Assembly: GCF_003790525.1 (NCBI RefSeq)
Contig: NZ_CP033635.1
Length of the DNA stretch: 64,000 nt
Strand: one strand, 5' to 3'
Origin: Escherichia coli
GTDB taxonomy: Bacteria > Pseudomonadota > Gammaproteobacteria > Enterobacterales > Enterobacteriaceae
Numbering within the stretch: the stretch's first letter is position 1; every line of letters starts with the position of its first letter. Shown here piece after piece: positions 32,613 through 41,364 of the stretch. Both the position numbers and the translations under genes were made by a program. Under the pieces are notes generated by a model that saw only the letters and a program-made list of their open reading frames with translations, made no database searches and was not told where the DNA came from.

Positions 32613-32777
32613 TTAGTTAATTCTCTGTGTCGTGCGCGTCCCAGCTTGAAAAAACGTAATAATAGTGAAAGGTTTACTCATAAATGAGCGGCATTTTGCG
32701 TAAACCTGCGCCAGTTGGCAACTTATTACAGCCATTGGCGGCACGCGTTGCTAATTCACGATGGTGATTTTATTTCC

Positions 32778-32793
32778 ACGCAAACGGTTTCGT
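32778..32793 (+). promoter_or_regulatory. PurR operator (pur box) of purL
   Basis: ACGCAAACGGTTTCGT matches the PurR consensus ACGCAAACGTTTGCGT at 14/16 positions, ~80 bp upstream of the purL start. Confidence 0.8.
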
Positions 32794-32871
32794 CAGCGCA
32801 TCAGATTCTTTATAATGACGCCCGTTTCCCCCCCCCTTGGGTACACCGAAAGCTTAGAAGACGAGAGACTT

Positions 32872-35800
32872 ATGATGGAAATTCTGCGTGGTTCGCCTGC
32901 ATTGTCGGCATTCCGAATCAACAAACTGCTGGCACGTTTTCAGGCTGCCAGGCTCCCGGTTCACACTATTTACGCCGAGTATGTCCATTTTGCTGACCTC
33001 AATGCGCCGTTAAACGATGATGAGCACGCACAACTTGAACGCCTGCTGAAATATGGCCCGGCACTCGCCAGCCACGCCCCGCAAGGCAAACTCCTGCTGG
33101 TGACCCCGCGTCCTGGCACCATCTCTCCCTGGTCTTCGAAAGCGACCGATATCGCCCATAATTGCGGTCTACAACAGGTAAACCGCCTTGAGCGCGGCGT
33201 GGCTTACTATATAGAAGCCGGTACGCTGACCAATGAACAATGGCAGCAGGTGACCGCTGAACTGCACGACCGCATGATGGAAACGGTCTTTTTTGCTTTA
33301 GATGATGCAGAGCAGTTGTTTGCTCATCATCAGCCAACCCCGGTCACCAGCATTGATTTGCTGGGGCAGGGCCGTCAGGCGCTAATCGACGCTAACCTGC
33401 GTCTTGGTCTGGCGCTGGCGGAAGATGAGATTGACTATCTGCAGGATGCGTTCACAAAGCTTGGTCGTAACCCGAACGACATCGAGCTGTATATGTTCGC
33501 GCAGGCGAACTCCGAGCACTGCCGTCACAAAATTTTTAACGCCGACTGGATTATCGACGGTGAACAGCAGCCGAAATCGCTGTTCAAGATGATCAAAAAC
33601 ACCTTCGAAACCACGCCAGACCACGTTCTCTCTGCTTATAAAGATAACGCCGCCGTAATGGAAGGTTCTGAAGTGGGTCGCTACTTTGCCGACCACGAAA
33701 CGGGCCGCTACGATTTCCATCAGGAACCGGCGCATATTCTGATGAAAGTTGAAACCCACAACCACCCGACGGCGATTTCTCCGTGGCCGGGCGCGGCGAC
33801 CGGTTCCGGCGGTGAAATCCGCGATGAAGGTGCCACCGGCCGCGGCGCGAAGCCGAAAGCTGGCCTGGTCGGTTTCTCCGTATCCAACCTGCGTATTCCT
33901 GGCTTTGAACAACCGTGGGAAGAAGATTTCGGTAAGCCTGAGCGCATTGTCACCGCGCTGGACATCATGACAGAAGGTCCGCTGGGCGGCGCGGCATTTA
34001 ACAACGAATTTGGTCGTCCGGCACTGAACGGCTACTTCCGTACCTATGAAGAAAAAGTGAACAGCCACAATGGCGAAGAGCTGCGCGGTTATCACAAACC
34101 GATCATGCTGGCGGGTGGGATCGGCAACATTCGCGCCGATCACGTACAAAAAGGCGAGATCAACGTTGGTGCGAAGCTGGTCGTTCTCGGCGGCCCGGCA
34201 ATGAACATCGGTCTTGGCGGCGGCGCGGCGTCTTCTATGGCATCTGGTCAGTCTGATGCGGACCTCGACTTTGCTTCCGTACAGCGCGACAACCCGGAGA
34301 TGGAGCGTCGCTGCCAGGAAGTGATCGACCGTTGCTGGCAGCTTGGTGATGCCAACCCAATCCTGTTTATCCACGACGTTGGCGCAGGCGGTCTTTCTAA
34401 CGCCATGCCGGAACTGGTGAGCGACGGCGGGCGCGGCGGTAAATTTGAACTGCGCGATATCCTGAGCGACGAGCCAGGCATGAGCCCGCTGGAGATCTGG
34501 TGTAACGAATCCCAGGAACGCTACGTGCTGGCGGTTGCTGCCGATCAGTTACCGCTGTTTGACGAACTGTGTAAGCGTGAACGAGCACCCTACGCGGTGA
34601 TTGGCGAGGCCACCGAAGAATTACATCTTTCTCTGCACGATCGTCATTTTGATAATCAACCCATCGATCTGCCGCTGGACGTACTGCTTGGTAAAACGCC
34701 GAAGATGACCCGCGAAGTACAAACGCTGAAAGCGAAGGGTGATGCGCTGGTTCGTGAAGGGATTACCATTGCTGACGCGGTGAAACGCGTGCTGCACCTG
34801 CCGACCGTGGCGGAGAAAACTTTCCTGGTGACCATTGGTGACCGCAGCGTAACCGGCATGGTAGCGCGCGATCAGATGGTGGGTCCGTGGCAGGTGCCGG
34901 TCGCTAACTGCGCGGTCACTTCCGCCAGCCTCGATAGCTACTACGGCGAAGCGATGGCGATTGGCGAGCGTGCGCCGGTTGCGCTGCTGGATTTCGCCGC
35001 CTCTGCCCGTCTGGCGGTCGGTGAAGCGTTAACCAATATTGCCGCAACACAGATTGGCGATATCAAACGCATTAAACTTTCCGCCAACTGGATGGCGGCG
35101 GCAGGCCACCCTGGTGAAGATGCGGGCCTGTATGAAGCCGTTAAAGCTGTGGGCGAAGAACTTTGTCCGGCGCTGGGCCTGACGATCCCGGTGGGTAAAG
35201 ACTCTATGTCGATGAAAACCCGCTGGCAGGAAGGTAACGAAGAGCGCGAAATGACGTCGCCGCTGTCGCTGGTGATTTCTGCATTTGCCCGTGTGGAAGA
35301 TGTGCGTCACACCATCACGCCGCAGCTTTCTACCGAAGATAACGCATTACTGCTGATTGATCTGGGCAAAGGCAATAACGCGCTGGGCGCAACGGCGCTG
35401 GCGCAGGTTTATCGTCAGCTTGGCGACAAACCGGCAGATGTACGCGACGTTGCCCAACTGAAAGGCTTCTATGACGCGATTCAGGCGCTGGTTGCACAGC
35501 GTAAGCTGCTCGCGTACCACGACCGCTCGGATGGCGGCCTGCTGGTAACGCTGGCGGAAATGGCGTTTGCTGGTCATTGTGGCATTGACGCAGATATCGC
35601 CTCTCTGGGTGACGATCGCCTGGCTGCGTTGTTTAACGAAGAACTGGGTGCGGTGATTCAGGTTCGTGCCGCTGACCGTGAAGCGGTCGAGTCCGTACTG
35701 GCACAGCATGGACTTGCGGATTGCGTCCATTATGTAGGGCAGGCGGTTTCCGGTGACCGTTTTGTGATTACCGCCAACGGGCAGACTGTATTCAGCGAAA

Positions 35801-36759
35801 GCCGCACTACGTTGCGTGTCTGGTGGGCAGAAACTACCTGGCAGATGCAGCGCCTGCGTGACAACCCGGAGTGTGCCGATCAGGAACATCAGGCGAAATC
35901 TAACGACGCCGATCCGGGCCTGAATGTGAAACTGTCGTTTGATATCAACGAAGATGTGGCAGCACCGTATATTGCCACCGGTGCGCGTCCGAAAGTTGCC
36001 GTGCTGCGTGAGCAGGGTGTGAACTCGCATGTTGAAATGGCGGCAGCTTTCCACCGTGCAGGCTTCGATGCAATCGATGTGCATATGAGCGACCTGCTGG
36101 CTGGACGCACGGGACTGGAGGATTTCCACGCCCTGGTCGCGTGCGGTGGTTTCTCCTACGGTGATGTACTGGGTGCCGGTGAAGGTTGGGCGAAGTCTAT
36201 CCTGTTCAATGACCGTGTACGCGATGAGTTTGCAACCTTCTTCCACCGTCCGCAAACGCTGGCGCTGGGGGTATGTAACGGTTGCCAGATGATGTCTAAT
36301 CTGCGCGAACTGATCCCAGGCAGTGAGTTGTGGCCACGTTTTGTGCGCAATACCTCCGATCGCTTTGAAGCGCGTTTCAGCCTGGTTGAAGTAACCCAAA
36401 GCCCGTCTCTGCTGTTGCAGGAGATGGTGGGCTCGCAAATGCCGATTGCTGTCTCTCATGGTGAAGGGCGCGTGGAAGTGCGTGATGCGGCGCATCTGGC
36501 GGCGCTGGAAAGTAAAGGGCTGGTGGCACTGCGCTATGTCGATAACTTCGGCAAAGTCACTGAAACCTACCCGGCTAACCCGAACGGTTCTCCGAATGGT
36601 ATTACGGCGGTCACGACTGAAAGTGGTCGAGTCACTATTATGATGCCGCACCCGGAACGTGTTTTCCGTACTGTCAGCAACTCCTGGCATCCGGAAAACT
36701 GGGGCGAGGATGGCCCATGGATGCGCATTTTCCGCAATGCACGTAAGCAGTTGGGGTAA
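32872..36759 (+). CDS. purL: phosphoribosylformylglycinamidine synthase
   Basis: 1295 aa from [26 protein letters not shown]...; large-type FGAM synthetase with C-terminal glutamine amidotransferase ([12 protein letters not shown]); the ORF-track ORF starts 37 codons upstream, across the pur box. Confidence 0.96.
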
Positions 36760-36783
36760 GCCGTCAAACTCATTGTTTTTGCA

Positions 36784-36816
36784 GCCCGGATGAGGCATTC
36801 ACGCCGCATCCGGCAT
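36784..36816. repeat. REP element
   Basis: GCCCGGATGAGGCATTCACGCCGCATCCGGCAT imperfect palindrome; shares TTCACGCCGCATCCGGCAT with the second REP at 54493-54526. Confidence 0.75.
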
Positions 36817-36837
36817 TAAGCACCAACCGCTATTATA

Positions 36838-36862
36838 AGCTCCCAACTTCGGGAGCTTTTTT
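36838..36862 (+). terminator. rho-independent terminator downstream of purL
   Basis: AGCTCCC-aacttc-GGGAGCT hairpin followed by TTTTT. Confidence 0.85.
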
Positions 36863-36863
36863 G

Positions 36864-36977
36864 TGTCTGTAAATCACGACAATGGGTGGTTTACCGTGTC
36901 GCTTTCTGGCGACACTTAACTGATTGATTTTAATATTATCTAATAAGTTTATCTTAAGTTGTCTCTTTTTAGCGACA
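36864..36977 (+). promoter_or_regulatory. upstream activating region with three TGTC-N10-GACA sites (GlrR/QseF-type)
   Basis: TGTCtgtaaatcacGACA (36864-36881), TGTCgctttctggcGACA (36897-36914), TGTCtctttttagcGACA (36960-36977), all upstream of the sigma54 promoter. Confidence 0.8.
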
Positions 36978-37066
36978 CAGTGGCTGATTTACATTCAAAT
37001 AGCGAAGAAGCCATAAATCCCTCAAAGCAGCGTATAATCAGTACGTTACCAAACTATTTTCTTTAT

Positions 37067-37082
37067 TGGCACAGTTACTGCA
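37067..37082 (+). promoter_or_regulatory. sigma54 promoter of glmY
   Basis: TGGCACagttaCTGCA: -24 GG and -12 GC with canonical spacing; overlaps a sigma70-like -10 (CATAAT). Confidence 0.85.
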
Positions 37083-37093
37083 TAATAGTAACC

Positions 37094-37277
37094 AGTGGCT
37101 CATTCACCGACTTATGTCAGCCCCTTCGGGACGTGCTACATAAAATTCGAATGACGCACAACAAGGTGCCTGCCGTCCAACTTCTGATATCAGCGTAGCT
37201 ATATCAACCCTCGGGCGAAACGTCGAGTTAGGCACCGCCTTATTCCATAACAAAGCCGGGTCATTCCCGGCTTTGTT
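37094..37277 (+). ncRNA. glmY: GlmY small regulatory RNA
   Basis: Starts ~12 nt after the -12 element (AGTGGCTCATTCACCGACTTATGTCAGCCCCTTCGGG...) and ends at the AAAGCCGGG-tcatt-CCCGGCTTT hairpin plus TGTTGTAT (37252-37277); no plausible ORF. 3' end approximate. Confidence 0.8.
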
Positions 37278-37335
37278 GTATCTGAACTTCCCCTCGGTTA
37301 GCATCAGGCTATTCGCGTCTGACGAGAGTAACACC

Positions 37336-38763
37336 TTGAAACGCTGGCCCGTTTTTCCCCGCTCATTACGACAACTGGTAATGCTGGCATTTTTGCTGAT
37401 TCTGCTACCCCTGTTGGTGCTGGCATGGCAAGCCTGGCAAAGCCTGAATGCGCTTAGCGATCAGGCGGCGCTGGTTAACCGCACTACGCTTATTGATGCC
37501 CGGCGCAGTGAAGCGATGACCAACGCGGCGCTGGAGATGGAGCGTAGCTACCGTCAGTATTGCGTGTTGGACGACCCAACCCTGGCGAAGGTTTATCAAA
37601 GCCAGCGCAAGCGTTACAGCGAAATGCTCGATGCCCACGCAGGCGTGCTGCCGGACGATAAACTCTACCAGGCATTACGTCAGGACTTGAACAATCTGGC
37701 TCAACTTCAGTGTAACAACAGCGGTCCCGATGCCGCCGCCGCCGCGCGTCTGGAAGCCTTTGCCAGTGCCAATACCGAAATGGTGCAGGCCACGCGCACA
37801 GTGGTGTTCTCTCGTGGGCAGCAACTTCAGCGTGAAATCGCCGAACGTGGGCAATATTTTGGTTGGCAATCGCTGGTGCTATTTCTGGTGAGTCTGGTGA
37901 TGGTGCTACTTTTCACGCGGATGATTATCGGGCCGGTGAAAAATATCGAGCGCATGATCAACCGGCTGGGGGAAGGGCGTTCTCTGGGCAATAGCGTCTC
38001 GTTCAGTGGACCGAGCGAGTTACGCTCGGTTGGGCAACGTATTCTTTGGTTAAGTGAGCGCCTGTCATGGCTGGAATCCCAACGCCATCAATTTTTAAGA
38101 CATTTATCTCATGAATTAAAAACCCCGCTGGCGAGTATGCGCGAGGGCACTGAATTACTGGCAGACCAGGTTGTCGGGCCGCTTACGCCCGAGCAAAAAG
38201 AGGTGGTGAGCATCCTTGATAGCAGCAGCCGCAATTTGCAAAAACTGATCGAACAACTGCTTGATTACAACCGTAAACAAGCGGACAGTGCGGTGGAACT
38301 GGAGAATGTTGAGTTAGCACCGCTGGTGGAGACAGTAGTTTCTGCTCATAGCCTGCCCGCACGGGCTAAAATGATGCATACCGACGTTGATCTCAAAGCA
38401 ACAGCTTGCCTGGCGGAGCCAATGCTGCTGATGAGCGTACTGGATAATCTTTACTCCAATGCGGTGCACTACGGGGCTGAATCCGGTAACATTTGCCTCC
38501 GCAGCAGTTTACATGGTGCGCGGGTTTATATTGATGTCATCAATACAGGCACGCCCATTCCGCAAGAGGAACGCGCCATGATCTTCGAACCCTTTTTTCA
38601 GGGAAGCCACCAGCGAAAAGGGGCGGTGAAGGGCAGCGGTCTGGGATTAAGCATTGCCAGGGATTGTATTCGCCGTATGCAAGGGGAACTGTATCTGGTC
38701 GACGAGAGCGGGCAAGATGTTTGTTTCCGCATTGAATTACCGTCGTCGAAAAACACGAAATAA
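37336..38763 (+). CDS. glrK: two-component sensor histidine kinase
   Basis: 475 aa assuming the TTG start at 37336 (…KRWPVFPRSLRQLVMLAFLLI…); HisKA H-box LSHELKTPLASM and HATPase region (GSGLGLSIARD). Also called qseE. Confidence 0.9.
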   Translation: MKRWPVFPRSLRQLVMLAFLLILLPLLVLAWQAWQSLNALSDQAALVNRTTLIDARRSEAMTNAALEMERSYRQYCVLDDPTLAKVYQSQRKRYSEMLDAHAGVLPDDKLYQALRQDLNNLAQLQCNNSGPDAAAAARLEAFASANTEMVQATRTVVFSRGQQLQREIAERGQYFGWQSLVLFLVSLVMVLLFTRMIIGPVKNIERMINRLGEGRSLGNSVSFSGPSELRSVGQRILWLSERLSWLESQRHQFLRHLSHELKTPLASMREGTELLADQVVGPLTPEQKEVVSILDSSSRNLQKLIEQLLDYNRKQADSAVELENVELAPLVETVVSAHSLPARAKMMHTDVDLKATACLAEPMLLMSVLDNLYSNAVHYGAESGNICLRSSLHGARVYIDVINTGTPIPQEERAMIFEPFFQGSHQRKGAVKGSGLGLSIARDCIRRMQGELYLVDESGQDVCFRIELPSSKNTK

Positions 38764-38927
38764 TGCTAACAGCCTATCCCATCAGGCTATTTTATTTGCC
38801 AGTTTGGCCCCGGGCAGTGCTCGAAATCTTCACGTACGACATGTACGCTCCGGTTTCTCCGCGCTGTCCATGTCCAAACTGCCTGCAACAATTACGCCCA
38901 CTGGGATAGGCTTTAAGTCTGGTGAAT

Positions 38928-39641
38928 ATGCGACACATTTTTCAACGATTATTGCCCCGACGGCTGTGGCTGGCAGGGCTGCCATGTCTGGCATTGCTGG
39001 GTTGCGTGCAGAGTCACAATAAGCCAGCCATTGATACGCCAGCAGAAGAAAAAATTCCGGTTTATCAACTGGCTGACTATCTTTCTACTGAATGTAGCGA
39101 CATCTGGGCGCTGCAAGGTAAATCAACCGAAACCAATCCGCTTTACTGGCTGCGGGCGATGGATTGTGCTGATCGTTTAATGCCTGCGCAGTCGCGTCAG
39201 CAAGCCCGCCAATATGACGACGGCAGCTGGCAAAATACCTTTAAACAAGGGATTTTGCTCGCCGACGCCAAAATTACGCCGTATGAGCGCCGCCAGCTGG
39301 TCGCGCGCATTGATGCGCTAAGTACCAAGATCCCGGCACAGGTTCGCCCTCTGTATCAACTCTGGCGCGACGGTCAGGCGCTGCAACTGCAACTGGCGGA
39401 AGAGCGCCAACGCTACAGTAAACTCCAGCAGTCCAGCGACAGCGAGCTGGATACTTTGCGCCAGCAACATCACGTTCTACAACAGCAACTGGAACTCACC
39501 ACCCGCAAGCTGGAAAACCTGACTGATATTGAACGCCAGCTCTCGACCCGCAAACCGGCTGGAAATTTCTCGCCGGATACGCCACACGAGAGTGAAAAGC
39601 CCGCGCCATCCACCGATGAGGTCACTCCTGATGAGCCATAA
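38928..39641 (+). CDS. qseG: outer-membrane lipoprotein of the GlrK/GlrR system
   Basis: 237 aa from MRHIFQRLLPRRLWLAGLPCLALLGCVQ...; lipobox LLGC; Q/L-rich coiled-coil C-terminus. Formerly yfhG. Confidence 0.88.
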   Translation: MRHIFQRLLPRRLWLAGLPCLALLGCVQSHNKPAIDTPAEEKIPVYQLADYLSTECSDIWALQGKSTETNPLYWLRAMDCADRLMPAQSRQQARQYDDGSWQNTFKQGILLADAKITPYERRQLVARIDALSTKIPAQVRPLYQLWRDGQALQLQLAEERQRYSKLQQSSDSELDTLRQQHHVLQQQLELTTRKLENLTDIERQLSTRKPAGNFSPDTPHESEKPAPSTDEVTPDEP

Positions 39642-40965
39642 ACCTGCGCATTTATTATTGGTCGATGACGATCCGGGATTGCTGAAACTGCTTGGCCTGC
39701 GTCTGACCAGCGAAGGCTACAGCGTGGTCACAGCGGAAAGTGGCGCTGAAGGATTACGGGTACTGAATCGCGAAAAAGTAGATTTAGTCATCAGCGACCT
39801 GCGGATGGATGAAATGGACGGTATGCAGCTGTTTGCTGAAATCCAGAAAGTGCAGCCGGGAATGCCAGTAATTATTCTTACCGCGCATGGTTCTATTCCT
39901 GATGCCGTTGCTGCAACACAGCAGGGCGTGTTCAGTTTTCTCACCAAGCCTGTCGATAAAGATGCGCTATATCAGGCAATTGACGATGCGCTGGAACAAT
40001 CCGCGCCAGCCACCGACGAACGCTGGCGCGAGGCGATTGTCACCCGCAGCCCGCTGATGCTGCGCTTGCTGGAACAGGCGCGGCTGGTGGCACAATCAGA
40101 CGTTAGCGTTTTGATTAACGGCCAGAGCGGCACCGGGAAAGAGATTTTCGCCCAGGCTATCCACAACGCGAGCCCGCGCAACAGCAAACCATTTATTGCT
40201 ATTAACTGTGGCGCATTGCCCGAGCAGTTGCTGGAGTCGGAGCTGTTTGGTCATGCACGTGGCGCGTTTACTGGCGCTGTCAGCAATCGCGAAGGTTTAT
40301 TCCAGGCGGCGGAAGGCGGTACGCTATTTCTTGATGAGATTGGCGATATGCCTGCACCGTTGCAGGTCAAACTGCTGCGCGTGTTGCAGGAGCGTAAAGT
40401 GCGCCCGCTGGGCAGTAACCGCGATATTGATATCGACGTGCGGATTATTTCTGCCACTCACCGCGACCTGCCAAAAGCGATGGCGCGCGGGGAATTCCGC
40501 GAAGATCTCTATTACCGCCTCAACGTTGTCAGCCTGAAAATTCCGGCACTGGCGGAGCGCACAGAAGACATTCCGCTACTGGCAAATCACCTGTTGCGCC
40601 AGGCGGCAGAGCGACATAAACCGTTTGTCCGCGCGTTCTCCACCGATGCGATGAAACGTCTGATGACCGCTAGCTGGCCGGGTAATGTGCGCCAGTTGGT
40701 CAACGTGATTGAACAGTGCGTGGCGCTGACCTCATCTCCGGTGATTAGTGATGCGCTGGTGGAGCAGGCGCTGGAGGGTGAAAATACGGCGCTGCCAACC
40801 TTTGTTGAGGCACGTAATCAGTTTGAACTCAACTATTTGCGTAAGCTGCTGCAAATTACCAAAGGCAACGTCACCCACGCGGCGAGAATGGCGGGGCGCA
40901 ACCGGACAGAATTTTATAAACTGCTTTCCCGACACGAGCTGGATGCAAACGATTTCAAGGAATGA
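39631..40965 (+). CDS. glrR: sigma54-dependent response regulator
   Basis: 444 aa from [21 protein letters not shown]...; receiver domain, AAA+ sigma54-activator motifs ([15 protein letters not shown]) and C-terminal HTH. Overlaps the qseG 3' end by 11 bp. Also called qseF. Confidence 0.93.

Positions 40966-40989: not shown

Positions 40990-41364
<375 letters not shown>

Follow-up and report, generated by a model that had tools for sequence, protein, structure and literature searches.

The closest described counterpart of the gene considered here is glrK/qseE of Escherichia coli K-12 (b2556, formerly yfhK; UniProt GLRK_ECOLI, 475 aa). It stands in a conserved synteny, glmY-glrK-qseG-glrR-glnB (PMC3045617), and the small RNA gene glmY is preceded by published overlapping sigma54 and sigma70 promoters (PMC6075780, PMC3045617) and by GlrR/QseF sites with the motif TGTC-N10-GACA (PMC3045617). 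The two-component system has been described as “transcribed independently” (PMC3045617), and likewise in a further paper from the same group (PMC4152352). According to PMC6075780, qseEGF in K-12 has its own sigma70 promoter just 3' of glmY, with a transcription start site (TSS) 25 bp before the start codon, and earlier RT-PCR is cited there for the statement that read-through from the glmY promoter “does virtually not occur.” In reporter fusions, Goepel et al. 2018 found low and virtually indistinguishable activity for qseE'-lacZ constructs that began at -70 or at -480, the latter including the entire glmY locus; deletion of qseF or qseG had no effect on the fusions in either exponential or stationary phase (PMC6075780). 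Expression of qseE was reported to be very weak, and global proteomics, as cited in the same paper, left QseE undetected as against 11 QseG and 36 QseF molecules per cell (PMC6075780).

A second described system is that of Proteus mirabilis, in which glmY also lies directly upstream of qseEGF, on the same strand and in the same order as in E. coli. For Proteus, co-transcription from the glmY promoter was claimed and a fragment from upstream of qseE had no promoter activity (PMC8745638); in E. coli, by contrast, the promoter is independent and read-through is not measurable (PMC6075780, PMC3045617). Regarding the start codon itself, UUG belongs to a class of codons initiating at 10-100% of AUG, and it starts ~3% of E. 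coli genes (bioRxiv 10.1101/063800).

We analyzed the glrK locus in a 64,000-nucleotide stretch of E. coli DNA (contig NZ_CP033635.1; hereafter, the window), which represents an E. coli lineage other than K-12. Based on Rfam and RefSeq mapping, the gene order is purL, glmY, glrK (qseE), qseG, glrR (qseF), and glnB, all on the + strand, which is the order described in PMC3045617. Positions 36760-38800 are 100% identical to SMS-3-5 and several other strains, and this stretch is present in 5425 of 5426 complete E. coli genomes. The TTG start, protein length, and gene order are all shared with K-12; the 70 nt 5' of the glrK start are identical, so the K-12 experiments apply here, and we found nothing of substance that differs. 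The features of the locus are as follows.

36864-36881, 36897-36914, and 36960-36977, + strand: three GlrR/QseF binding sites, TGTC-N10-GACA, from a pattern search
37067..37082, + strand: sigma54-type glmY promoter, TGGCAC-N5-CTGCA, just 5' of the glmY start at 37094
37094..37277, + strand: glmY small RNA gene, with an Rfam match at 37094-37241 and the terminator after it; 184 nt in the K-12 annotation
37247..37279, + strand: glmY intrinsic terminator, a perfect 14-bp hairpin (AACAAAGCCGGG/CCCGGCUUUGUU region) from RNA folding
37276..37281, + strand: putative -35 element (TTGTAT) of the glrK/qseEGF sigma70 promoter, with a 17-bp spacer to the -10 element and overlapping the glmY terminator T-tract
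37299..37304, + strand: -10 element (TAGCAT) of the glrK/qseEGF promoter, TAnnnT in 80/80 loci
37311..37335, + strand: glrK mRNA 5' untranslated region (UTR), 25 nt, with the TSS position taken from PMC6075780
37336..37338, + strand: glrK/qseE TTG initiation codon, from the RefSeq CDS start, K-12 b2556, and a codon census of 80 loci
37336..38763, + strand: glrK/qseE CDS, 475 aa plus stop, sensor histidine kinase with HAMP, HisKA, and HATPase_c domains
38928-39641, + strand: qseG, ATG start, from RefSeq mapping and the ORF list
39631-40965, + strand: glrR/qseF, ATG start, from the same sources
41026-41364, + strand: glnB, from the same sources

The Rfam match for glmY (RF00128) scored 145 bits with an E value of 4.8e-34, and the position of TGGCAC-N5-CTGCA fits the published glmY promoter. 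The three matches to TGTC-N10-GACA in the window are all upstream of glmY. Further upstream, the longest ORF for purL encodes 1332 aa from ATG 32761 (region 32761-36759); the RefSeq CDS is shorter (3888 nt, 1295 aa), and its annotated start is therefore an internal codon of that ORF. A promoter/terminator scan called a clean purL terminator at 36837-36858.

The predicted GlrK protein matches that of K-12 at 474 of 475 residues, the single difference being N119H, and the identical CDS is named qseE in RefSeq. PF00672, PF00512, and PF02518 (HAMP, HisKA, and HATPase_c) are recorded for its protein cluster, and a direct reading of the sequence gives a hydrophobic stretch at residues 14-31 after a K/R-rich N-terminus. 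Identity, domain set, and synteny all agree with assignment of the protein as the QseE/GlrK sensor histidine kinase orthologue.

An earlier note on this DNA had listed TTG codons at 37273 and 37336 as the only in-frame start candidates before the conserved N-terminus, with no ATG. The absence of ATG held up: the frame contains neither ATG nor GTG from the upstream stop, which lies 65 codons before 37336, to 37336 itself, and neither precedes KRWPVFPRSLRQLV. The list of TTG codons was incomplete, as a third, at 37276, had been overlooked. The ORF at 37273..38763 opens with TTG 37273; TTG 37336 follows 63 nt later in the same frame and yields 475 aa, and the frame around it reads ...SNT-L-KRWPVFPRSLRQLVMLAF. 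The first in-frame ATG is at 37381 (codon 16, Met16). Two near-cognate in-frame codons, CTG 37282 and ATC 37303, were dismissed as starts, being upstream of the TSS.

The note had also taken TTG 37336 as the start of a 475-aa protein, about 60 nt past the glmY terminator, and both statements agree with current annotation. The RefSeq CDS starts at 37336, K-12 b2556 is of equal length (NP_417051, at version 2), and UniProt applies the name GLRK_ECOLI to the 475-aa sequence. In the K-12 annotation glmY ends at 37277 of the window, leaving a gap of 58 nt to the glrK TTG. The TTG 37336 start is the current reference annotation, already known and ordinary, and little is at stake in restating it, as the promoter and the lack of read-through are also published for identical sequence. 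The practical value of the analysis lies in annotation. At least five start models for glrK and its orthologues are in public databases, which carry 460-, 475-, and 496-aa models as well as 497- and 538-aa models (Citrobacter), and orthologues are annotated at 460-463, 475-478, 497, or 538 aa. The start of this gene is thus a genuine annotation question, to which a reference answer exists. Automatic gene callers very often give the 460-aa model. In the 538-aa Citrobacter models, the coding sequence would run through glmY. Our comparison decides for the 475-aa TTG model, and the correct start matters for N-terminal tags, deletions, and topology models of this virulence-linked kinase.

We compared orthologous loci from Enterobacteriaceae, using one genome per species; of 80 loci fetched, 79 were analyzed together with the window, which gave 80 loci, all with distinct sequences, from Escherichia, Citrobacter, Salmonella, Enterobacter, Kosakonia, Kluyvera, Buttiauxella, and other genera. 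The top 120 homologues were all close relatives, and a search of representatives at 50% identity placed most of the order in one cluster, so that the only distant locus recovered was a Providencia-like one (L083). Outside Escherichia, synonymous third positions were only ~40-54% identical to those of the window, which means that the loci are well diverged. The first 45 codons of glrK contain no indels across the loci. Codon 1 is TTG in 74 of 80 loci and GTG in the other six; ATG and other leucine codons do not occur there in any of the 80. As controls, the other five TTG leucine codons of glrK have stayed TTG in no more than 2-35 of 80 loci, TTG reaches at most 29/80 in any of the 40 invariant-leucine columns, and invariant leucine positions near the start use three to six synonymous codons each. 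In the Providencia-like locus, which has 57% identity and glmY upstream, the equivalent codon is also TTG. An in-frame TTG is unremarkable by chance; it is the conservation of this one that exceeds chance.

The codons on either side of TTG 37336 point to the same boundary. Codons 8-15 (PRSLRQLV) are invariant in amino acid across the 80 loci and use two to five synonymous codons each, a pattern of free synonymous change indicating that they are translated. No start-type codon occurs at codons 2-10 in any of the 80 loci, and no protein-level conservation was found 5' of codon 1. In about half of the species an in-frame stop lies ≤13 codons upstream, and the stretch from that stop to the TTG often lacks a start codon.

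These data bear on the 460-aa model, in which ATG 37381 is the start and TTG 37336 is untranslated or merely an in-frame leader codon. K-12 was originally annotated with this model (“ORF_f460”), gene callers still place it on at least 1000 contigs, models of 460-463 aa are common among orthologues, ATG is the stronger start codon, and the Shine-Dalgarno (SD) energies in E. coli (-2.8 for ATG 37381 vs -3.4 for TTG 37336) do not exclude it. However, the translation signature of codons 8-15 lies before this ATG, and codon 16 is ATG in only 62 of 80 loci; the other 18 have ACG, ACA, ATC, ATT, GTT, or GTG (Thr, Ile, or Val), and in 12 of these species codon 17 is not ATG either. ATG 37381 also lacks an SD element at proper spacing, and starting there would remove all four positive charges that precede transmembrane segment 1 (K2, R3, R9, and R12), a loss that would be expected to affect topology. 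We therefore rejected ATG 37381 (37381..37383, + strand) as the main start, and we consider it very unlikely that the 460-aa model is correct.

The longest-ORF model fares worse still. It would start glrK at TTG 37273 or 37276 (496 or 495 aa), overlapping the 3' end of glmY, and it has in its favour that no other start-type codon of the ORF precedes TTG 37273 and that a 496-aa “YfhK” model from this codon appears in some GenBank records (22 contigs). Against this, both codons lie inside the glmY terminator T-tract, and 37276 lies within the putative promoter -35 element as well; they are upstream of the published TSS (~37311) and hence absent from the glrK mRNA. The extension specific to this model, LYLNFPSVSIRLFASDESNT, adds 21 codons that are not conserved as protein and that, in many species, contain in-frame stops. 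The two TTG codons are found chiefly in the Escherichia/Citrobacter group, in which the terminator sequence holds them fixed, so conservation of the terminator explains them; about half of the other species carry in-frame stops in the interval from here to the start. The pair (37273..37278, + strand) was rejected, and we give a start at either codon almost no credence. The comparison strongly supports excluding both the 460-aa and the 496-aa models as the conserved start.

Taking the comparison together with the published K-12 data, we are confident that translation of glrK/qseE truly initiates at TTG 37336-37338, the sole conserved start codon, and that it yields a scarce 475-aa kinase expressed from its own weak sigma70 promoter with an essentially nil contribution from glmY.

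Some lineages have an ATG close to the conserved TTG. Five loci read ATG-AAG-CTA-TTG, with the ATG three codons before the TTG: L065 and L076 (Buttiauxella), L068 (Enterobacter sp.), L074 (Dryocola), and L080 (Cedecea). In the Providencia-like L083, positions 1501-1512 read ATG-AAT-GCA-TTG, again with an in-frame ATG three codons before the TTG. Buttiauxella gaviniae and B. noackiae do not have an ATG at codon -3. Judging from sequence, the start may have moved to the ATG in the lineages that have it.

We also looked for entries under glrK, qseE, yfhK, or b2556 in the supplements of INRI-seq (PMC9825163), TRAINSPOTTER (PMC13245402), TetRP (PMC4909307), and a ribosome-signature study (PMC5576327), and found none in these four. 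The absence of GlrK from these initiation-site and N-terminomics supplements is probably due to the scarcity of the protein.

The TTG at 37336 lies on the glrK mRNA, with the published TSS 25 bp upstream and a conserved -10 element 31 nt upstream. The TSS coordinate (~37311) comes from a secondary statement in PMC6075780. A TAnnnT hexamer is present in 80/80 loci (TAGCAT in 61) and ends 28-36 nt before the start codon (31 nt in 53). TTGTAT is found 17 or 18 bp upstream of the -10 element in 46 of 80 loci and is probably the -35 element of the glrK promoter. Its overlap with the terminator T-tract is kept in the same number of species (46/80); in others (Kosakonia, Kluyvera, and Buttiauxella), the -35 region differs and the terminator is set 10-25 nt farther upstream. 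A consensus sigma70 scan of the region called no promoter, because the glrK promoter matches at only 7 of 12 positions. The E. coli TSS table of PMC3415461 has no glrK entry; in that dataset only the Klebsiella orthologue has a TSS, which the supplement maps 7-8 nt after GTTAGCAT. For Klebsiella pneumoniae NC_009648, this TSS is only 5 nt before the annotated start of KPN_02881 (yfhK, 1440 nt) (PMC3415461), and that annotation probably extends the N-terminus too far beyond the conserved TTG/GTG start.

Within the leader, GAGAG at 37324-37328 has a spacing of 5-8 nt and forms an anti-SD duplex of only -3.4 kcal/mol, which in E. coli is no better than at the rival codons. Codon slots -4 and -3 are GAG in 64 of 80 loci and AGT in 47 of 80, with no wobble pattern; GAG-AGT-AAC is thus kept as nucleotides, as expected for a ribosome-binding region. 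Folding gave no excess of structure in the 5' UTR and start region relative to shuffled sequences (z +0.87).

In our reading, glrK is the first gene of the qseE-qseG-qseF(-glnB) operon, and its transcription starts at a weak sigma70 promoter of its own, within the 58 nt that separate it from glmY (putative -35 at 37276-37281, -10 at 37299-37304, TSS ~37311). The 25-nt leader, predicted to be unstructured and carrying the weak GAGAG SD element, precedes the UUG, and the N-terminus fMet-KRWPVFPRSLRQ would supply positive charges ahead of transmembrane segment 1. Together, the weak promoter, weak SD element, and UUG would keep the kinase very scarce. Transcription of glmY stops at the strong intrinsic terminator and contributes essentially nothing to glrK.

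That a weak start suits low expression of the sensor, as the earlier note had suggested, is plausible, since the weak promoter, weak SD element, and TTG fit a kinase that proteomics did not detect. Within the operon, glrK is the only gene with a non-ATG start; qseG and glrR both start with ATG, and the SD element of glrR is better. It is a reasonable inference that the UUG is kept in order to hold the kinase low. Across the 80 species and the Providencia-like outgroup, codon 1 has switched to GTG in four lineages (six loci) and never to ATG, and taxonomy suggests that the four switches were independent. The lack of any switch to ATG as against those to GTG hints at selection for weakness, with which it agrees, the events being too few for proof; the family-wide absence of ATG at codon 1 is a small hint of selection on kinase scarcity. 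More tentative is the proposal that the UUG start is actively kept weak, with selection holding the kinase well below QseG and QseF; it may be correct, although we lean somewhat against it. If the weak start is selected, substitution of AUG should mis-set QseE/QseF and glmY signalling. Ordinary UUG-initiated bacterial genes resemble glrK in having a start-type codon, in orthologues that switch only to GTG, and in an SD-like element 5-8 nt upstream. The AUU start codon of infC is put to autoregulatory use; unlike for infC, we know of no autoregulatory use of the unusual start codon of glrK.

The earlier note had further proposed that read-through of the glmY terminator couples glrK expression to glmY, and it had set an independent glrK promoter against this idea. 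Such a promoter is present (PMC6075780; -10 element in 80/80 loci), and the proposal fails on several grounds. The glmY terminator folds at -23.4 kcal/mol (z -7.6), with none of 200 shuffles as stable, and its 3' half runs into the T-tract TTTGTTGT, which contains the in-frame TTG codons at 37273 and 37276. The terminator scanner missed this terminator, apparently due to a stem that extends into the T-tract. If read-through supplied a meaningful share of glrK expression, GlrR-activated glmY would feed back on the kinase. In its favour, no more than 58 nt separate the two genes, which share a strand and have conserved synteny; the interruption in the T-tract means that termination need not be complete; and for Proteus mirabilis RT-PCR was reported to give a product reaching from glmY to qseF, and the genes were called an operon (PMC8745638). 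However, in K-12 the qseE'-lacZ fusion with the complete glmY locus behaves like the short promoter fusion, and the earlier RT-PCR indicated virtually no read-through (PMC6075780). The hairpin is very stable, and the independent -10 element is conserved in every locus. Read-through coupling of glrK to glmY in E. coli is not supported, and we consider a meaningful contribution from it very unlikely. That read-through becomes relevant under conditions beyond those assayed, as claimed for Proteus, is the less likely reading. Mentions of “cotranscribed” genes in papers on EHEC were set aside, as they concern espJ-espFu rather than glmY-qseE.

The spacing between glmY and qseE differs in the Providencia-like L083 (CP054158.1), with a gap of ~375 nt vs 58 nt in E. 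coli. This gap contains a good sigma54-type motif, TGGCATGTTGATTGCT, at 1373-1388, ~115 nt before qseE. The three TGTC-N10-GACA sites of L083 all lie 5' of glmY (719-832). The sigma54-type motif could represent a second promoter of this class, serving either qseEGF or an unannotated RNA, or it could have arisen by chance.
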